Positions 1 to 50,808 of a stretch of 64,000 nucleotides of DNA are shown here, piece by piece. The stretch covers positions 28,396,001-28,460,000 of the forward strand of contig CM069141.1 of the NCBI GenBank assembly GCA_035221665.1, written 5' to 3'. The notes below the pieces were generated by a model that saw only the letters and a program-made list of their open reading frames with translations, did no database searches and was not told where the DNA came from. How positions within the stretch are numbered: position 1 is the first letter of the stretch; each line of letters begins with the position of its first letter. The position numbers and the translations under genes were made by a program. Origin of the DNA: Okamejei kenojei (taxonomy: Eukaryota).

Positions 1-204
1 AGACTATAACCCAGGACCTTTGGATTTAAATAATATTTAAAGTGGTGTAGAAATAAATTGCAATCCAGTTTAATATATTCAGGTTAGAAATTCACCAAGT
101 GCTTTGGTTTCCTTCCACATCCTAAAGACCTGCTGGTAAGTTAATTAACTCCTGGCAATTACTTTTTCATGTAGGTTGAAGGAATCAAAGGGAGTGATGG
201 TCTT

Positions 205-517
205 GTGTGTGGGAGATCATGTCTCACCGCTTTATTTGAGTTTTTTGAAGTAACAAAGAATGGTGAGGGCAGATGTAGTCTATATGAACTTCAGGAAGGC
301 CTTTAATAAGGCCTTCCACATGGTAGGCTGCTCTGGAAGGTTAGATATCATGGGATCCAGAATAGTCTTCATGGTAGGAAGCAAGGGGTGGGAGTGGAAG
401 GTTGTTTTTCAGACTGGCGATCAGTGTTGAGGTGTGCCTCAGGGATCATTTCTGGGCCCAGTGTTGTTTGCTATTTATACCAACGATTTGGATGAGAATG
501 TACGGCATAATTAGTAA
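205..517 (+). mobile_element. Degraded CR1 LINE reverse-transcriptase fragment
   Basis: Frameshifted remnants of GRSCLT..EFFE, DVVYM.F.KAF.K, GVPQGS.LGP.LF.IY.NDLDE motifs; cut off by the next insertion. Confidence 0.85.
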
Positions 518-1027
518 ACAATCACAATCGGTTTTATTCGTCACATTGCACACAAAGTGCAAGTGAAATTAATTTGCCAGCAGCGGTATAATGATAAAGA
601 ACACACAAAAACACAATAATAATTTAACACAAACATCCACCACAGCATTCATCACTGTGGTGGAAAGCACGAAAATTTGGCCAGTCCTCCTCCATTTTCC
701 CCCGTGGTCGGGACCTCAACCCTCCGCAGCTGCGGGTGTCCAGACGTCCAGACAGGTAAAAGTCCAGGTAAGTCCAGAATTGTCTCTTCCTCACCTGGAG
801 ACCGCGGCTTCAGGTTGGTGTAGGCCGAAGGCCGGTGGTCGAAGATTTAAAGTCAGAAGCACCGCGGACCGCAGGGCCGGCGGTCGAAGCTCCCCTCCAG
901 GGGTGATGGTAAGTCCACGCCGGGCCCGCGGTAGAAGTAGGCCGCGGGCCGAAGGTCAGAGCTTCTTCTCCCGGGTCCCTACGAGGGATCCCGGGCTGCG
1001 GACGCAGGCTGTACACAGGCTGTACAC
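518..1027 (-). mobile_element. Non-autonomous GC-rich retroposon with Rex/Babar-type 3' tail (copy A)
   Basis: On - strand: CpG-rich body, hairpin 636-664, terminal TCAC-TTGCAC-loop-GTGCAA-T-GTGA stem-loop, AATAAA and short repeat tail; patchy homology to 4225-5076. Confidence 0.75.
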
Positions 1028-1390
1028 GGAACATTTTAGAGCTATTTGTTATCTCTTCATCTAAATTTATAAAACCATAGGGATCCCATTTCAAAACAGA
1101 ACTACCTTATTTATGTGGATTATTTCAGAAATCTCTCAAAACATTGCACATAGATTATTCTTATGTTAACAAGGTACAATGCCGAACGTCAGCTTTTTTT
1201 GGTCATTTTTGTGCAAATGTATAGTGGAGCTGACTTTCCTTTTTGGATGTTTTCTTCTTTAAGAGAAACCAATTGGGGGAAAAAAATGTAATTCTATCAA
1301 TTTTGTTACGATTGAGGCTTTACCTTGTACTTTTGCTCAAAATAAGCGTAATATCTGAAAGGCAAACCAGTACTTGCCCTGCAATGAAGT

Positions 1391-1548
1391 GTAGTTTAGT
1401 TTAGTTTATTATTGTCACGTGTACCAAAGTACAGTGAAAAACTCAGTTTGCATGCTATCCAGTCAAAGAAAAGACTATACATGAATACAATCAAGCTGTC
1501 CACACTGCAAAGGATAAAGGGTACACCATTGAATGCAAGATATAACAT
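1391..1548 (-). mobile_element. Rex/Babar LINE 3' UTR and tail
   Basis: (CTAAA)n tail, AATAAA, TCAC-TGTAC-loop-GTACA-C-GTGA stem-loop; homologous to the 3' UTR at 12297-12430. Confidence 0.75.
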
Positions 1549-1864
1549 TGAACAATGTTTAAAATTAAGGGGATAATTGTTCAATGGCCTCAGGAGCACA
1601 TACAGGATTGCTACCACATACCCCTCAAATGATTATTCATATTCATCACTCTTCCACACAGATAAACCCATCATACAGATCAGTCGCAGACTGATATTTA
1701 CAGAAGTTAGTAGTGACAGCAATTTGTTGAAATCATTGCAACCGATGTAGCAAAGATATCAAAGTTTTGGTAAGTCCATTCCATGCTTCTTCCAAGATGA
1801 TATTAGGACAGAGATTTCAGTGATGTTGAGAGACAAGAATAGTTCATATTGTTCTCAGCATGTT

Positions 1865-2175
1865 GAATTTAAGGGGAACTTTATGAGACCTAAAACATTG
1901 ACATTTTGGTTTAACAGAATGCTTCTGGTTAAAAAGATACACATTTAAGATAATTAGAAAAATATTTAGAAGAATTTACTTTTTTTTCCTCATGTAGTGA
2001 GTTTTCAAATGGAATTGGTTAGATGAAAAGTAATGTTCTAAACGGAATTTTATATATACTTAAAAACACATTTGCAGAGCTTTGGGAAAGGAACAGAATA
2101 GGACTAGTTCAATAACTCTTTCCAAATGTGGACACAAGAATGATGTGCCAAAAGAACTTGTTCAGCTGCAAATAA
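1865..2175 (+). mobile_element. Highly degraded CR1 3' end
   Basis: Patchy similarity to the CR1 3' ends in this window (TTAAGGGGAACTTTATGAGACC..., GGACTAG...GGACACAA...GCCAAAAG). Confidence 0.55.
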
Positions 2176-3092
2176 CACAAGATGCTCTCTGTTTCCCAGC
2201 CTCCCTCTAAAGCTAACATTAAACTTGTCTATTCATTGTGCATCAGTGCTAAGATTTATTTAACATCATTTGTGTGAAGAGCCTTAAGACGTTTTACTGT
2301 ATTGAAGATGTTATTATATAAATAAAGCTATTGTTGCTCATTCTTTGAATCGGTTTGTGAAAGGGCAAAACAGAAAAATACTCTGTATTAAAGTTTAATG
2401 AACCAGAATAAGAAAGTGTTTGGAAGGATGCAATGTGTGTAGAACCTAGTTAAAAAATAAATGCACAAATAAGAGTAAAATCTAAGATACAGAAAAAGAA
2501 TATATGACAAAATGAAATCTATTTCTAAATTCTGTTTAAAAATTCAAAGCATGATTCATAATGACTTATTCTGGAGTTTTTTTTAATAAGTTGGGAATTT
2601 TTACAATACATTAGAAACATTGGGATATTTTGAGAATGCAGCATATTATGCAGTTTATCTTTTTTGGTAAAATGGAAAATTATTAAAAAGATGGCCAAAT
2701 TAGACAAAGTAAATTTTAAACATTTGCAAATTCTCCCTCTGCCTACAACCATGGCAAATATCCAAAATATGTTACGGGGAAGAATACATCATTGCGATTT
2801 TTTACAGACATGCCGGGCAATCACCACATTATTTAATAAGTTGTAGAAATCCTTCAAAACTGGCTTTTATAAGACAGAAGTTCGTGGTGGAAGGATGTTA
2901 TTCTGGCTGAAGGTCTGTGACCAGTGACGTTCCGCAGAGGTCTGTGCTGGGACCACTATGGTTTGTGATATATATATGAACAATGTGGATGTAAATGTAG
3001 ATGGGTTGGTCAGTGAGCCTTTAGATGTCAACAAAATTGGAGGAATTGTGTATCGTGAGGGAGGCAGTGAAAGTATTCAGCAGGGTATGGAT

Positions 3093-3840
3093 TACATGGT
3101 AAATGGTAGGGAATTGAGGAATGCTGTGGAACAGAGGGATCTAGGAATAACTGTGCATAGTTCCCTGAAGGTGGAATCGCATGTAGATAGGGTGGTAAAG
3201 AAAGCCTTTGGTGTGCTGGCCTTTATAAATCAGAGCATTGAATATAGGAGGAGGGAAGTAATGTTAAAATTGTACAAGGCATTGGTAAGACCAATTCTGG
3301 AGTATGGTGTACAATTTTGGTCGCCTAATTATAGGAAGGATGTCAACAAAATAGAGAGAGTACAAAGGAGATTTACTAGAATGTTGCCAGGGTTCCAGCA
3401 ACTATGTTACAGAGAAAGGTTGAACAAGTTAGGTCTTTATTCTTTGGAGCGCAGAAGGTTAAGGGGGGACTTGATTGAGGTCTTTAAATGATGAAAGGGA
3501 TAGACAGAGTTGACGTGGATAAGCTTTTCCCATTGAGGGTAGGGAAGATTCAAACAAGAGGGCATGACATGAGAATTAAGGGACAGATGTTTAGGGGTAA
3601 CGTGAGGGGGAACTTCTTTACTCAGAGGGTGGTGGCTGTGTGGAATGAGCTTCCAGCAGAAGTGGTGGAGGCAGGATCGATTTTAACATTTAAAAGTAAA
3701 GTGGATAGGTATATGGACGTGAAGGGAATGGAGAGGTATGGTCTGAGTGCAGGTAGATGGGACTAGGGGAAAACAAATGGTCGGCACGGACTGGAAGGGC
3801 CGAGAGGGCCTGTTTCCGTGCTGTAATTGTTATATGGTTA
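3093..3840 (+). mobile_element. Young 5'-truncated CR1 LINE (ORF2 C-terminus and 3' UTR, (TATATGGT)n tail)
   Basis: ORFs 2958-3491 and 3488-3766: KALVRPILEYGVQFWSP, RRLRGDLIEVFK, RGNFFTQRVV; one frameshift; near-identical to 52031-52290. Confidence 0.95.
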
Positions 3841-4224
3841 ACTACAGAAATGGGAAGAGTAATGGCCGATGGAGTTTAATCTGAGGATAATGTGAGGCGT
3901 TGCAATTTGGGAGGTCAAATGTAAGGGGGAAAGCATACAGATAATAACAAGACCTGTAACAGCATTGATAATCACATGGATCTTGGGGTTTAAGTACATG
4001 ACTCCCTGAAAGCAGCCACAAAGGTAGACAGTATGGTAAAAGTGGTGTATGTTATGCTTGTCCTCTTTGGGCAGGGCATTGAGTATAAGAGTCAGGAAGT
4101 CCCGTTGCAGCATTATAGGACTTTAGTCAGGCTGCATTTGGAATACTGTATACAGTTGTGGGTCGCCTTGTTATAGGAGAGGTTTTGGAGGGGATGCACC
4201 AGTTTACCAGAATGTTGCCTGGAT

Positions 4225-5076
4225 ACAAGGATACAAAGGACATTTATTATCACATACACCAATTGGTGTAGTGAAATTTGACTTGCCATGCAGCACACAG
4301 ATAAAGATAAGATACAACATTAAATAATTTAACAATAAACATAAAAACATCCCCCCACAATGGTTCCCACTGTGAGGGAAGGCACAAAGTCCAGTCCCCA
4401 TCCCCATGCCCACCCATAGTCAGGAATATTGAGGCCTCCGCAGTCGCCGCTACGGGGCCCGATGTTTCAGGCCCTTCTCACCAGGTGATGGTGCTCCAGT
4501 GTCGGGAGAATCCTCTCAGCGGCTTGGGACACCTAGAACGGCCGTTTCCTTACCGGAGACACCGGCTTCCGAAGCCGACAGGCCGCGCTGGATGGAGCTC
4601 CAACACTGACGATCTCGCTGAGAGATCCCAGGCTCCCGATGTTAAAGTCAGCGCCGCAGCTGGCCACTCCAGAGACCCGCAGCTCCGCGATGTTCACCTG
4701 CGGTCTCAACATTCCGGAGCTCCAGCGCGGCGACCCGGGCAAGGCATTGCCCGCTCCGCGATAGCGCTCCAGCGCTGTGCCGCCGCCAAAGCCATGGTTC
4801 TGGCCGGTCCCCTCAGGAAATGCCGCTCCAGACCCGTTGCTAGGCCGCAAGGACGGGTCAAAGATGCTGCCCGGAGAAAAGCCGGATCTCCGACCAGGTA
4901 GGTACCAGGAAAAGCAGTTTCCCCCTACCCCCCCCCCCCCCCCCCCCACACACACATAAAAAAGACTAGAGCTCCAAACAAAACACTTTTTAACACACTA
5001 AAAATAAAAGAAAAAAGTGAAAAGACAGACAGCTACAGGCTGGGCAGCCATATCCAACTGGACGGCGTCCCTGGAC
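4225..5076 (-). mobile_element. Non-autonomous GC-rich retroposon with Rex/Babar-type 3' tail (copy B, ~850 bp, possibly full length)
   Basis: Cleanly interrupts CR1 between ...GCCTGGAT and TAGAG (GGAT at 4221-4224 and 5077-5080); 3' stem-loop, AATAAA and (TTGTATCC)n tail; no RT similarity. Confidence 0.8.
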
Positions 5077-6231
5077 GGATTAGAGTGCATTAGCCAGAGG
5101 GAGAGGTTGAACAAACTTGGATTGTTTTCTGTGGCATTTTCGGAGGCTTAGGGGAGACTTAATAGATGTATGGAAATATATAAAATTATGAAAGGCAGAA
5201 AGTCAGACCTTTTTCCAAGGGTGGAGATGTCACAGACTAGAGAGCATAGCTTTACGGTGAGGGTCAAAATTTAAAGAAAATGTGCGGGGCACGTTTTCTT
5301 TTTACACAGAGAGTGTTTGGAACATGCTGTTGGCGGTGGTGGTGATGGTGATGGAGGCAGATACGATTGGGGCATTAAAGAGATTTTTGGTTAGATTCAG
5401 TGGATATGCAGTGAATGGAGGGATGTAGATCACGTGCAGGTAGAGCAGATTTGTTTAACCTGGCATCATGTTTGGCACAAAAATTGGAGGCCGAATGGCC
5501 TGTTCCTATGCTATACTGTTCTATGCTCTATGTTCATTTTTGTATTTAGATTTGAGTGATTGTCATTGGAACAGCCAGTCAGTATTGCTTTTATCTCTCA
5601 TGTACTAATTATAATTTTTTAGTGGACCTGTTCACTTGAAATCACATAATAAACATGAATGTGTCAACTTAAGTTTTACTTTAACTTTTAACTAAGTTTT
5701 AAGTTAACTTTTGCATTAGACAAATTCACACAGCTGGAACCCTGACAAATTAATTAATTTAATATTGTTATTAAGCCATTTGCAGTAACTTTAAAGATCT
5801 CATAAGTATAGTCTTCTGAAACTTACTGGAAATGGGCTTTAAATATTTAGTTATTATCCATAAGGCATAATTTCAGTGCCAAATTATTCCAGTTATTACA
5901 AAACTCAGACTCGCCAAATCAAATCCATATCAATGACATAAAACAGGAAAAATCCTTGTGCTAGTGTACAGAAAGAAACCTCAAACCTCCAGCTTTGTTC
6001 TTGTATCAAAATACATCAGAGGATATAATGGGTTCATCATTTTTTATGTCTTTAAACATTTTCTGCATGTCTGGATTTCCAAACATGTTTAAAATATAAA
6101 TAAATTAGGAACAGAAATTGGGGTGCATAAAACCACCATATTTTGTCCAATATAGTGTTTCCACAAACAACACACGTGGAGTTCACTTGATTAAATTCAA
6201 TGTGGCAGCTCATTCCGTTAACACCCTTTGA

Positions 6232-6432
6232 ATTCATGGAAAATGGGTGTTGGTGGCAAAGTCACCATTATTACCCACCCCTAATTGTCCTAAAAAAATT
6301 AGTGGCTTGTTAGACTATTTCAGAGAAATGTCAAGCAGTGACCATGTTGGGATCACATACGGGACAAATTGTGTAAGGGTTGTATGTAACCCTTCCCTTA
6401 AGAACATCAATGAACCAGATGGCTTGAAAACC
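6232..6432 (-). mobile_element. Old SINE 3' part (second chondrichthyan SINE family)
   Basis: Reverse complement matches the CATCTGG.TC..TGAT.T.CTT...AAGG...CAAGCCA segment of 61055-61318. Confidence 0.55.
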
Positions 6433-6959
6433 TAGGTTTTAAATAAAAGTTGGTCAGTGGATAGTACACTTTAACTTTTTTCAAAAACCTGTTTTGATAA
6501 TATGTCTGAAGTGAGGATGTCCAAGGCTTTGCATCATCCGGAGGTCAGAGCAGATGAATGAAAGTCAAATACTTTCTGGCAATTATGCATACACCATGAC
6601 ATCAAATCGTGTGCAAGCCTGTTGTATAAAATCAAGTGTAAAATTTGTGCTCCGAAATTGAAGCCTGTGAACTATGTGGGCTTCCAACCTCAGGGCAGCT
6701 CGTAGTGTTGAGGCCTTCCTCATGTTGATTAAAAAAACGGTTGCTCCTACCTGACCAACTTCATTAAATTACCTCCTTAAAGACTACTTCAAGTTCAACA
6801 CTGCCTCGCTACCTGTGTCTTCAGCCTACACCAACATCTTTCACATCCTTGGAACAACTCAAAACAGTTTATGCATCATGAATCATTCTTAAACCTTGCT
6901 CATTTATGTAGACAAAGGTGATATACATTTCATACAACCATTACTTTTTCATTGTCAAA

Positions 6960-7795
6960 GTATCCCACCTGACCCCCCCCATCCCCCCCCCCCCCCCCCC
7001 CCCCCCCCTCATCCACCACCTCTCTGACACCACCCAGGTCCTTTATTCACTCTGAATCATCTACATCACTACTCTGACCAAACCAGGTCTATCCTTTGAC
7101 CCCATCCTGAGTTCTTGATCATCTGACTTCCAAGCCTCCCTTACTAATCAACCCATCCAGACGTCTCAATCGTATCTCCCCCCACGCTGGCCACCTTGTG
7201 TATGGTCTCCTGCACTGCTCAAAAAGGCTCAATATCCGCTCGGTCCGCAATAACCAAGCCGACCTCCCAGTGGCTCAGCACTTCAATTCCCCCTCCCATT
7301 CCATATCCGACCTCTCGGTCCTGGGCCTCCACAGCCAGAGTGAGCAACACCGCAAGTTGGAGGAACAGCACCTCATATTCCGCTTGGGGAGTCTGCATCC
7401 CCTGGGCTTGAACATTGAATTTTCTCAATTCTGTTAACCCTTGCTGTCTCTGCCCCTTCCCACCTCTCCCTCAGCCCTCGGGCCCTGGCATTCCCTCTCT
7501 CTCCATCTCCCTCCCCCACCCTAGTCGCAGTAGCTTCTCATTTTCACACCACAAACAGCTTACAATAGCTTGTTCCCTTTATCATCGATAATTTTTTGCA
7601 TATCTTTCATTCATTGTTCTTTATCTCTCCACATCACCGTCTGTATCTCTCGTTTCCCTGACCAGTCTGAATAAGGGTCTCGACCCGAAACGTCGTCTAT
7701 CTCCTTCGCACCTTAGATGCTGTTGCACCCGCTGAGTTTCTCCAGCCTTTTGTGTACCCTCGATTCTCCAGCATCTGCAGTTCCTTCTTTAACTC
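6960..7795 (+). mobile_element. Penelope-like element: internally deleted ORF remnants, GIY-YIG C-terminus, pLTR with hammerhead motif
   Basis: IPPD..LSDT N-terminal remnant; ORF 7198-7437 DLPVAQHFNSPSH..RKLEEQHLIFRLGSLHP.GLNIEF; CTGAATA-AGGGTC-TC-GACCC-GAAACGTC at 7667-7694. Confidence 0.85.
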
Positions 7796-8044
7796 AATGC
7801 AAGCCACCTGTTCTGCTGAGCATTTTCAGCATTTTCTATATTTGTCTGTCTCTGCAGTTTTATTTGATTTTCATTAAATGTTTTACATTGTACCATTCCA
7901 CCATGGGTTTTTTAAAATATTTTGGTCCCTGGTTAAATAAGTCCTTCTTAACAACTTTATCTGCTTTTTCTGTTGAGTTTCATAGATACTTGCATTGTTC
8001 ATCAGTACTTCATGGGGTTCTGTCATGTATACCAGCTCCATTAA

Positions 8045-12845: not shown

Positions 12846-13787
12846 GCAGCGACATTATAACTAAATGACTGGTAACAAATTTAAGCAAACAAGGAAAATA
12901 ACATAAAAATAGGAGATAAAGATGGTGTAATAAAAATATATATATATATTCATGCTGTATTATTTGAGGCAGGAAGGGACATTTTGAAAGAGAGCAAAAT
13001 TAGAAATCTCTCTTCAATGGATCCATTGTTCAAGATAGTGTTTATTGATTCAGAAAAGAGCAGGATATGATCAGCTCTTTGCTGGCATTAAATGTGTGGA
13101 TAATGATACACAAAAGGGTAGGGAAGATGTGTGGGTGGTGAATTTACCTTTTCTTTGGCTTTCTGCTGTCTGTCTTTACACTACTGTTGCAGATGAATGG
13201 AAAATGACTAATTCTAAGTGATGTAAGCGCTCTGATGTCCTGCTAACCTTGTCTACACTGGACATTTGATGCCCTCGATGTGTCTGCATGGTTGGTTAAT
13301 TCAAATTCCTATTCACATGTTCAGTAAAACTCACACTTTCCTTTGATAAAATTATAATTATAGTTAAGAAGTGAACATTTACATGCTTTTTGAGAATTGA
13401 AAAACAAATACATGTTTTTGTATAACTAAAATTAATTTTGTACAAATTCTGCACTGAATTATTTATTTGTTTAAAATTAGATGCTCATGACCAATTATAT
13501 ATGCATCCTGCTGAAAATATATTGGAATATATTTTAAATTTATAATTTATATTTTCGAATACTTGTATGCATCGCACATATGTTACTTTCAGTTTAGTTT
13601 CTTAATACTTGGCATCAGATATATGAGAAAAAGTCAAATAAAATAATTCCAAAACATTTTGGAGTAAAGGTTATCATGTAACTAGGACTAGAGATTAATA
13701 ACCTGCAAATGTGAAGGGGAAAAGCAAGCCAGAATTACTAATTTCTCAAATATTTTCTCAGTCACAGGAAGAGCATTTATAATGTTT

Positions 13788-14100
13788 TAAAGAAGGAACT
13801 GCAGATGCTGGAGAATGGAGGGTACACAAAAGGCTGGAGACACTCAGCGGGTGCAGCAGCATCTAAGGAGCGAAGGAGATAGGCGACGTTTCTGGTCGAG
13901 ACCCTTCTTCAGACTGGTCCGGGATCAGGGAAACGAGAGATATAGATGGTGATGTGGAGAGATAAAGAACAATGAAAGATATGCAAAAAAGTATCGATGA
14001 TAAAGGGAACAAGCCATTGTAAGCTGTTTGTAGTGTGAAAATGAGAAGCTAGTACGACTAGGGTGGGGGAGAGAGATAGAGAGAGAGGGAATGCCAGGGA
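13788..14100 (-). mobile_element. Penelope pLTR with intact minimal hammerhead core (13885-13912)
   Basis: Highly similar to the reverse complement of 7485-7792; CTGAAGA-AGGGTC-TC-GACCA-GAAACGTC. Confidence 0.85.
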
Positions 14101-49064: not shown

Positions 49065-49155
49065 TTAGTCTAGTTTAATTTATTTTAGTTTAGTTTAGTT
49101 TATTGTCACCTGTACCAAGGTACAGTGAAAAGCTTTTGTTGCCCGATAACCAGAC
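49065..49155 (-). mobile_element. Rex/Babar LINE tail
   Basis: (CTAAA)n, AATAAA, TCAC-TGTACC-TT-GGTACA-G-GTGA stem-loop. Confidence 0.75.
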
Positions 49156-49386: not shown

Positions 49387-50808
49387 GTAGACAAAAGTGC
49401 TGGAGAAACTCAGCGGGTGTGGCAGCATCTATGGAGCGAAGGAAATAGGCAACGTTTCGGGCCGAAACCCTTCTTTAGACTGATGTAGGGTTGGGGGGGG
49501 TGGAGGAGCGGGAAAAAGAAAGCAAGAGGAGGAGCCAGAGGGCTGAGGGAGAAGTGAGGGAAGGAGACAGTGAGGGCTACCTGAAATTGGAGAAGTCAAT
49601 GTTCATGCCGCTGGGGTATAACCAATCCCCATCTACAGACACACTCCACCGCCTAGTGGAGCTGGTCCTTACCCTTAATAACTTTTCGTTTGACTCCTCC
49701 CATTTCCTCCAAATACAAGGCGTAGCTATGGGCACGTGCATGGGCTCTAGCCATGCCTGCCTCTTTGTAGGGTACGTTGAACAATCCTTGTTCGAGACGT
49801 ACCAGGGCCCCATCCCCGACTTCTACCTCCGCTACATCGACAACTGCATTGGTGCTACCTCCTGCACCAACACACAACTCGCTGACTTCATCCATTTCAC
49901 CACCAACTTCCATCCGGCACTCAAATACACCTGGACCATTTCCGACACTTCCCTACCATTTCTTGACCTCACTATCTCCATCGCAGGTGATAGGCTTCTG
50001 ACCAACATCCACTATAAACCCACTGACTCCAATGGCTATCTAGACTACTCTTCTTCCCACCCTGCTTCCAGTAAGGACTCTATCCCCTACTCCCAAATCC
50101 TCCATCTACGCCGCATCTGCTCCCAGGATGAGGTGTTCGACACCAGGGCGTCGGAGATGTCCTCAGTCTTCAGGGAACGGGGGTTCCCCTCCCCTGCTAT
50201 GGATGAGGCTCTCACCAGGGTTTCTTCCATACCCCATAACACTGCTCTCCGATCCCCATCCCCGCACTCATAACCAGGGCAGAATCCCCCTTGTCCTCAC
50301 CTTCCACCTTACTAGCCGTCACATACAACAAATAATCCTCCATCATTTTGCCACCTCCAACGTGACCCCACCATTTGCCACATCTTCTCCTCCCCTGTCT
50401 GCTTTCCGCAAAGACCGCTCCCTCCGTTACTCCCTGGTCAATTCGTCCCTTCACACCCATACCACCGCCTCCCCGGGCACTTTCCCTTGCAACCGCAAGT
50501 AATGCTACACTTGTTGCTTTACCTCACCCCTTGACTCCATTCAAGGACCCAAGCAGTCTTTCCAGGTGCGACAGAAGTTCGCCTGCATCTCCTCCAACCT
50601 CCATCTATTGCATCCGCTGCTCTAGATGTCAGCTGATCTACATCGGTGAGACCAAGCTCGATCCACAACAACCAACCTGATCTCCCGGTGGCTCAGCACT
50701 TCAACTCCCCCTCCCATTCCGAATCCGACCTTTCTGTCCAGGGCCTCCTCCATGGCCATAGTGAGGACCACCGGAAATTGGAGGAGCAGCACCTCATATT
50801 TTGTCTAC
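49387..50808 (+). mobile_element. Penelope-like retroelement, RT and GIY-YIG pseudogene with inverted upstream pLTR
   Basis: LTLNNFSF..QIQGVAMG..YLRYIDN (YIDD mutated), LPFLD, HYKPTDS; IYCIRCSRCQLIYIGETK; stop and frameshifts; 49387-49620 inverted; ends GTAGACAAAA / TTTTGTCTAC. Confidence 0.93.

Follow-up and report, generated by a model that had tools for sequence, protein, structure and literature searches.

A structured, non-coding retroposon superfamily with Rex1-type ends in the genome of Okamejei kenojei

A long interspersed nuclear element (LINE) prefers to copy its own transcript; how a non-coding RNA overcomes this preference has been worked out mostly with Alu and SVA, and what the conserved bodies of short interspersed nuclear elements (SINEs) do is an open question. 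Bipartite LINEs that lack an open reading frame (ORF) – RIME, NARTc, the R2 SIDEs, Bov-A and the derivatives of Vingi-1_EE – have LINE-type ends, are presumed to be transcribed by RNA polymerase II (Pol II) and are mobilised in trans; as of 2018 the sources reported for them, in the available text of PMC5786205, were RTE, Ingi, Vingi and R2 only. SVA and LAVA are non-autonomous, LINE-mobilised composites with a GC-rich central repeat array that varies by subfamily, and their internal domains set the efficiency of mobilisation (PMC4432496, available text). CORE, V, Deu and HE1 SINEs, the last from sharks and rays, keep an internal domain through exchange of their tails, and in a sea anemone the SINE2-5_NV element, which is headed by a transfer RNA (tRNA) sequence, is paired with Rex1-24_NV (available portions of PMC5786205 and PMC3747384). 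Bird SINEs, in the accessible part of PMC7245038, have GC-rich heads of unknown origin upstream of a bipartite RTE. Here we describe two stretches of minus-strand sequence, A (518–1005) and B (4225–5071), in a window of 64,000 nt from Okamejei kenojei (G000:C11:28396001-28460000, contig CM069141.1, in a 2.76-Gb assembly). They are copies of one abundant, non-coding retroposon superfamily of ~850 nt. A sequence-only reading had singled them out as a non-tRNA, SINE-like or bipartite element with a selected RNA hairpin, mobilised by Rex/Babar LINEs. Our analysis directly reveals many copies, fixed 5′ ends, common 5′ truncation, tails that match Rex1, and two helices that are paired across subfamilies.

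That the stretches might be single-copy sequence is dismissed by both similarity and pattern searches. Family B has 7,799 first-look candidates genome-wide, of which the 40 best, apart from B itself, match at 84–91%; most copies start at one G-rich 5′ end and finish in AATAAA and a microsatellite. Family A has 3,397 candidates, and since most other copies extend ~400 nt further upstream to a fixed start of their own, A is 5′-truncated. A pattern fixing only the flanks and outermost stem letters of the hairpin discussed below (H3) matched the genome 10,916 times against 6 for its control, the stem being recognisable in all 100 of the matches listed; a stem pattern with a gap of 10–25 nt gave 9,289 matches and a B-type pattern 1,318, each against 0 for the control. 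Extrapolation from these counts, allowing for divergence at the fixed letters, indicates that the genome probably contains ~35,000 CpG-rich copies. Clustering of 90 of the 100 listed flank-pattern loci placed 80 in clusters of at least three and, together with A and B, yielded 15 subfamily consensuses. The 13 usable full-length consensuses are collinear at 50–87% identity (63% for A versus B), and A and B, initially thought mostly unalignable, can therefore be aligned: a family-A profile matches B at E 7e-29 in the 5′ half and 3e-16 in the 3′ part. Contigs labelled as four different organisms keep family B along nearly its full extent (29 of 30 bins), and the family is thus older than their split; metagenome and viral scans returned no match to the element. 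In 19 B copies, with tail ends cut crudely, the longest word common to both flanks averaged 4.9 nt as against 4.1 nt for mismatched pairs, which argues that there is no regular target-site duplication.

H3 occupies 636–664 in A (12 bp), exactly as first described, and 4350–4380 in B, where the stem has 14 bp and the 5′ arm had been drawn one base short. Its distance to the end of AATAAA is 103 nt in A and 107 nt in B, in agreement with the placement originally reported, and the pair changes between the copies (one A-U to C-G and four swaps between Watson–Crick and G-U), the conserved flanks and a third conserved block (787–811 in A, 4546–4569 in B) are likewise present. Both hairpins fold much better than shuffled sequences (z -3.8 for A, -3.0 for B). 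Across the 15 consensuses all 180 of 180 H3 cells are paired, around a loop of 5–21 nt; identity is 0.92 in the stem columns versus 0.66 elsewhere, and the 5′ arm is the most conserved window of 12 columns. A hand count on the tree found that 9 of 9 subfamily-level changes in H3 keep pairing, against 31 of 74 copy-level changes (p 4e-4), the latter counted in 104 copies (77 of 90 picked by flank and 27 of 60 A or B copies) with singletons, three copies with indels and unparsed copies excluded. The unpaired C·U intermediate between the A-U and C-G forms is confined to 21 long-loop copies genome-wide, about 7 of which have one common loop, and would therefore be a small, short-lived lineage. In 14 of 15 consensuses H3 folds more stably on the sense strand, in part an effect of composition. 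Specificity for the minus strand, as originally proposed, holds for B (-22.7 versus -13.1 kcal/mol) and fails for A, which folds on the plus strand too (-16.8 kcal/mol, z -5.1). Single folds also pair the two tracts that flank H3, purine-rich and U-rich, into an outer helix, which is missing from the consensus fold.

A second hairpin, H2 (4856–4895 in B), had been overlooked, and it covaries more than H3. In 33 copies, with shuffles that do not control for relatedness, H2 has 31 double-change cells versus 14.8 shuffled and a covariation score of 0.316 versus 0.196, values equalled in 0 of 500 shuffles in each case; one pair alternates among U-A, C-G and G-C, another among A-U, U-A and C-G. RNAalifold recovers the core of H2 unaided, and the hairpin folds in 12 of 13 consensuses. 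In copy B, where it is partly decayed, it folds no better than shuffles (z 0.07), and in family A an alternative hairpin can form with an upstream repeat. That the two hairpins stay paired while the remaining sequence drifts suggests an RNA fold that aids the spread of the element.

Individual loci add to the picture of H3. Locus L313 represents a further subfamily, with C-G at pair 5, G·U at pair 10 and a tail led by TTTCGTT; its changes are independent, keep pairing and stand outside the H3 counts. At locus L055 (around 1858–1895) a family-A copy has a local inversion-duplication with H3 at its centre, the outcome expected if the template switched at a folded hairpin. At L127 (G000:C4:4203200-4211200, minus strand) the H3 of a superfamily member is interrupted in its 3′ arm by a Rex1 copy. 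Targeting of H3 by Rex1 was considered and set aside: 5 further junction matches occur genome-wide, about the number of a rough chance estimate made with no matched control motif.

The link to Rex1 is clearest in the tails. Rex1 ends linked to reverse transcriptase (RT) terminate in a stem-loop, AATAAA and a microsatellite, and the ORF of the partner Rex1 encodes an endonuclease, an RT and PF09004, which we take to be a marker of Rex1. The tails of the element fall into three types, led by TTTCAC, TTTCGTT or TTCCTC, each nearest to a different RT-linked Rex1 family, and the match is confined to the last ~35 nt, starting at a common AAATT. For each of the 13 consensus tails that were cut correctly an RT-linked Rex1 end matches at p <= 0.007; the other two, once recut, reach p < 0.001, which makes 15 of 15 tails LINE-derived. 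Placed on the subfamily tree, the three types point to at least two switches of the last segment, presumably at the AAATT junction. The terminal stem of B differs from the nearest Rex1 stem by paired changes. Closest to most tails, including that of B, is an abundant Rex1 family (10,164 candidates) with 3′ ends on the minus strand of the window at 1392–1521 and about 49081–49134; the 30 fetched copies of this family are nearly all short C-terminal or 3′ fragments. Two autonomous Rex1 families were observed at full length, both starting with CAAGATGGCG, a GC hairpin and a U-tract in an untranslated region (UTR) of ~100 nt. Subfamilies c3l and c1 have heads that match one of these 5′ ends (p 0.001 and 0.008), and five other heads, those of A and B included, have the same layout as Rex1 with a match that is weaker or not significant. 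On this evidence the copying enzyme is likely that of Rex1, borrowed by the element. An N-terminal protein search for further Rex1 5′ ends listed 150 hits, all 150 from one family; a young Rex1 family has at least 150 5′-intact copies, some with open frames near 990 aa (G000:C19:45689617, C1:150982828, C7:23212288 and others).

Coding capacity is lacking. The absence of RT similarity reported at the outset is borne out by a search of window positions 1–8000, which gave no match to Rex1 proteins; these proteins likewise gave no sense-strand match to the 15 consensuses, and ATG-led ORFs reach at most 176 aa and are not common to subfamilies. Neither does the element have the marks of a SINE transcribed by RNA polymerase III (Pol III). 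ARAGORN found no tRNA in 30 loci, Rfam no relevant family (signal recognition particle/Alu included) in 20 loci or in window positions 1–6000, and, in keeping with the earlier view that A and B boxes are missing, none of the 15 consensuses has a pair of them by simple patterns. A head derived from tRNA, 5S, 7SL or small nuclear RNA is absent, as are the boxes; a LINE-derived 3′ tail is present. Pol III terminates at T runs, and such runs occur within 70 nt of the start, at 46 in A and 67 in B. A ribozyme like that of hepatitis delta virus, which has the topology of a nested pseudoknot, was rejected for the head, with no Rfam match on the heads and hairpin loops (about 4–14 nt) that are too short for it.

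Every test run is consistent with the broad outline of the sequence-only reading – an element that neither codes for protein nor derives from tRNA, has ends of Rex1/Babar type and carries an RNA structure under selection. Its description as SINE-like or bipartite survives in part: the element is non-tRNA and has Rex1-type ends, yet it is no Pol III SINE, and it is probably not simply bipartite either, because ~600 nt of its body have no match in the Rex1 copies examined. We consider it probable that the element is a Pol II-transcribed, Rex1-mobilised composite, SVA-like in kind, with RNA structure under selection and a putative role for the hairpins. Transcription by Pol II would start from the head, and the Rex1 protein would recognise the last ~35 nt or terminal stem-loop and carry out target-primed reverse transcription in trans. 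The weakest step, which we put forward tentatively, is that H2 and H3 are read sequence-specifically by a host RNA-binding factor, outside normal LINE cis-recognition: a host factor is proposed because autonomous Rex1 RNAs are without H2 and H3, and sequence-specific recognition because H3 is conserved in sequence as well as in pairing. Serving as handles, the hairpins might let such a factor keep an ORF-less RNA stable and deliver it to the enzyme, much as the internal domains of SVA and LAVA do in the account available from PMC4432496.

Several observations weigh against the composite reading. H3 has a single true double change, A-U to C-G, in B and its sister subfamily c13, so that the expectation of significant covariation in the hairpin first noticed is borne out only in part and the evidence for selection on H3 is mainly the conservation of its arms, its free loop and its pair-keeping one-sided changes. 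Pair-level measures for H3 are not above shuffles that ignore relatedness (175 and 166 of 500), and neither are two such measures for H2 (389 and 203 of 500). Four of the nine H3 changes fall on CpG and may be decay, leaving 5 of 5 (p about 0.013, calculated by hand), and where a strand is rich in G and U its composition is enough to tilt folding towards the sense side. For the heads of A and B the match to Rex1 is not significant (p 0.08–0.99); the comparison with Rex1 5′ UTRs that had been suggested for B gives a significant match for the two subfamily heads named above and not for B itself (p 0.34). The full-length 5′ ends come, moreover, from two Rex1 families of which neither is among the three that best match the tails. 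Finally, since copies lie about 6% from consensus (13 A and 28 B copies), families A and B may be extinct.

What, then, of other explanations? The sequence-only reading had itself named, as a refutation, alignment of the copies throughout to the ordinary 3′ UTR of an autonomous LINE. If A and B were 3′ UTR fragments, the source would be an autonomous Rex/Babar LINE, and they do have the terminal stem-loop and microsatellite tail of such an element; this explanation is nonetheless scarcely credible and does not hold for the sampled Rex1 families, given that BLASTN matched A or B to 0 of 30 Rex1 C-terminal loci, that the families have discrete 5′ ends with unique flanks, that a Rex1 ORF adjoins the head at 1 of 102 hairpin loci (a nested insertion), and that the Rex1 3′ UTRs observed measure ~120–320 nt. 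Of 30 loci chosen for their pre-tail motif, all but one (29) carry H3, or its 3′ arm, upstream, and the exception is cut short inside another repeat; starting from H2, 26 of 30 loci reach H3 275–691 nt downstream, four do not clearly do so, and none enters a Rex1 ORF. This last count speaks equally against a strict bipartite derivative, in which an unsampled or extinct Rex1-like LINE would have lost its interior, so that a long 5′ UTR, now head, body and H3, came to adjoin the 3′ end, with hairpins inherited as promoter or translation elements. The tail is of Rex1 type and so, at least in layout, is the head, and CpG-rich repeated units resemble a LINE promoter. ORF-less bipartite LINEs are, besides, on record in the available text of PMC5786205. 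We judge such a derivative unlikely all the same: in each of the two autonomous families sampled the 5′ UTR measures about 100 nt and lacks the body, the body and both hairpins are absent from four full-length copies of these two families, where a pooled profile finds the tail alone (E 0.25), and translation signals would not remain selected over 15 ORF-less subfamilies.

A different objection is that the conserved blocks act as DNA, as transcription-factor or palindromic sites of an internal promoter or enhancer, with folding a by-product. The sequence conservation of H3, its folding on both strands in A and its core, an inverted heptamer pair (CACAGTG...CACTGTG), would all fit. The non-Watson–Crick cells of the 15 consensuses, however, are G·U on the sense strand in 14 of 14 cases and C·A in none; the arms are separated by anything between 5 and 21 nt, the covarying changes in H2 include transversions, and H3 lies ~700 nt downstream of the start, all of which leaves this explanation improbable. 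The heptamers recall recombination signals recognised by RAG, a candidate that we rejected on reading the alignments, there being no nonamer 12 or 23 nt from either heptamer. Very improbable, lastly, is a role for the 3′ arm of H3 as an antisense guide which docks on Rex1 mRNA and takes the nascent enzyme. Its best duplex falls on the same K-T-S/A-T-I-V codons in two of five Rex1 families (about -21 kcal/mol), but this was found post hoc and falls short of significance when compared with dinucleotide-shuffled sequences (2 and 4 of 30); a third family has its best site elsewhere and an antisense strand that scores about equally, and seven subfamilies have changes that keep the hairpin while weakening the duplex by 4–7 kcal/mol. 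As a separate observation, the 3′ arm of H3 and its flank are near-complementary, though not significantly so, to K-T-S-T-I-V codons in the Rex1 RT region of L121-L134, which could hint at an origin of H3 from an ORF fragment.

Returning to the composite reading, the element is neither an SVA nor a Pol III SINE; it would be a non-autonomous, LINE-dependent retroposon that is SVA-like in its working. With the bipartite LINEs of PMC5786205, as described in the available text, it has in common the absence of an ORF, a LINE-type 3′ end, possibly a LINE-type 5′ end, and presumed Pol II transcription and mobilisation in trans, and it differs in its probable partner, Rex1, and in the ~600 nt between its ends that carry selected helices of their own. 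Like SVA and LAVA, as the accessible part of PMC4432496 presents them, it is a non-autonomous and presumably LINE-mobilised composite with a GC-rich central array that varies by subfamily; unlike them it is without an Alu-like or SINE-R part, a poly(A) tail or a long target-site duplication, and it has a Rex1 tail of stringent type, hairpin-forming units of ~70 nt and an unrelated origin. Retention of an internal domain through tail exchange recalls the CORE, V, Deu and HE1 SINEs, whose tRNA or 5S heads and Pol III boxes (available portions of PMC5786205 and PMC3747384) are missing from an element that is ~850 nt long and has T runs near its start. The bird SINEs of PMC7245038, in the text accessible, combine LINE mobilisation, presumed for the element too, with non-tRNA, GC-rich sequence of unknown origin as found here, but their partner is RTE, whereas the GC-rich part of the present element sits between LINE-type ends.

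The available text of PMC6274825 describes Rex1 and mentions no derivative, and that of a ray genome preprint (10.64898/2026.10.27.761883) pools L2/CR1/Rex. A literature search found no description of the element, though Repbase, Dfam, subscription journals and supplements lay outside its scope and may hold one. It is possible, but in our view doubtful, that all parts of the following claim hold jointly: that this is an independently evolved SVA-like class, a structured Pol II RNA retroposon of ~850 nt from cartilaginous fishes and the first ORF-less parasite on Rex1 ends, which moved among at least three Rex1 partners by exchanging only its last ~35 bases and kept a new sequence-specific RNA element, H3, along with the covarying helix H2, for capturing LINE machinery in trans. 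On the composite reading, Rex1 would be added to the few LINE clades that have ORF-less Pol II derivatives, and a repeat that automatic libraries would likely label Rex-Babar or unknown would be explained. With their two helices, their exchanged tails and an unpaired intermediate that is seldom seen, the 15 subfamilies amount to a mutagenesis series provided by nature, and the question of how a non-coding RNA gets past the preference of a LINE is therefore directly testable.

From 5′ to 3′ the element consists of a GC head hairpin, U-tract, G-tract, H2, GC-rich body, purine tract, H3, U-rich linker, terminal stem-loop, AATAAA and microsatellite. Copy B is full-length (~845 nt), with the discrete 5′ end and tail common to its family. 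On the minus strand its head hairpin (5042–5071), with the GC-hairpin-then-U-tract layout of Rex1 5′ ends, is followed by the U-rich tract with its T runs (4955–5023), a G-tract ending in GGGGAAAC (4917–4947), H2 with a U/C-rich loop, the GC/CpG-rich body (4416–4848), the purine-rich tract (4389–4415), H3, the U-rich linker with the pre-tail motif (4277–4349), a Rex1-type terminal stem-loop with AATAAA (4243–4276) and the microsatellite tail (4225–4242). Copy A, whose family measures ~860–910 nt at full length, has on the same strand a purine-rich tract (684–703), H3, a terminal stem-loop with AATAAA (533–568) and a microsatellite tail (518–532). The outer boundaries drawn at first, 1027 and 5076, need moving inwards: family A matches begin at 1003–1005 (query base 26–28), and the head of family B begins at 5071. 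The interval 1006–1027, outside the family, is an 11-nt word present twice, a duplication at the point where A is truncated. The CpG richness attributed to both copies is confirmed, with observed/expected ratios of 0.7–0.96 in four 250-nt windows inside them and mostly 0–0.6 outside.

The body is built of degenerate units of ~70 nt, set in an array and each containing a small inner hairpin, together with shorter units; in B the homology of units comes from the consensus alignment. Internal repetition exceeds all 30 shuffles in 7 of 10 consensus bodies, that of B not among them, and five bodies fold at z -1.6 to -3.3. The third block, in both copies, is part of the last ~70-nt unit, whose inner hairpin has the GGTRAG of the block in its loop in some subfamilies. 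The motif like a 5′ splice site that had been read in this block is specific to copy A: GTGAG is found in 2 of 30 family-A copies, which mostly have GTGGG. Look-alikes of the U1 5′ end (ACTTACCTGG at 764–773, a similar one at 4894–4903) were rejected, as was the splice-site reading, for lying at non-homologous places and lacking conservation across subfamilies.

Around B the host site is a decayed LINE, which we assume to be CR1-like, with 3836–4161 and 5053–5422 matching an ORF from locus L131. A further repeat at about 7150–7790, with relatives at 13787–14099 and 50656–50800, resembles what is presumably the endonuclease end of a Penelope-like element.

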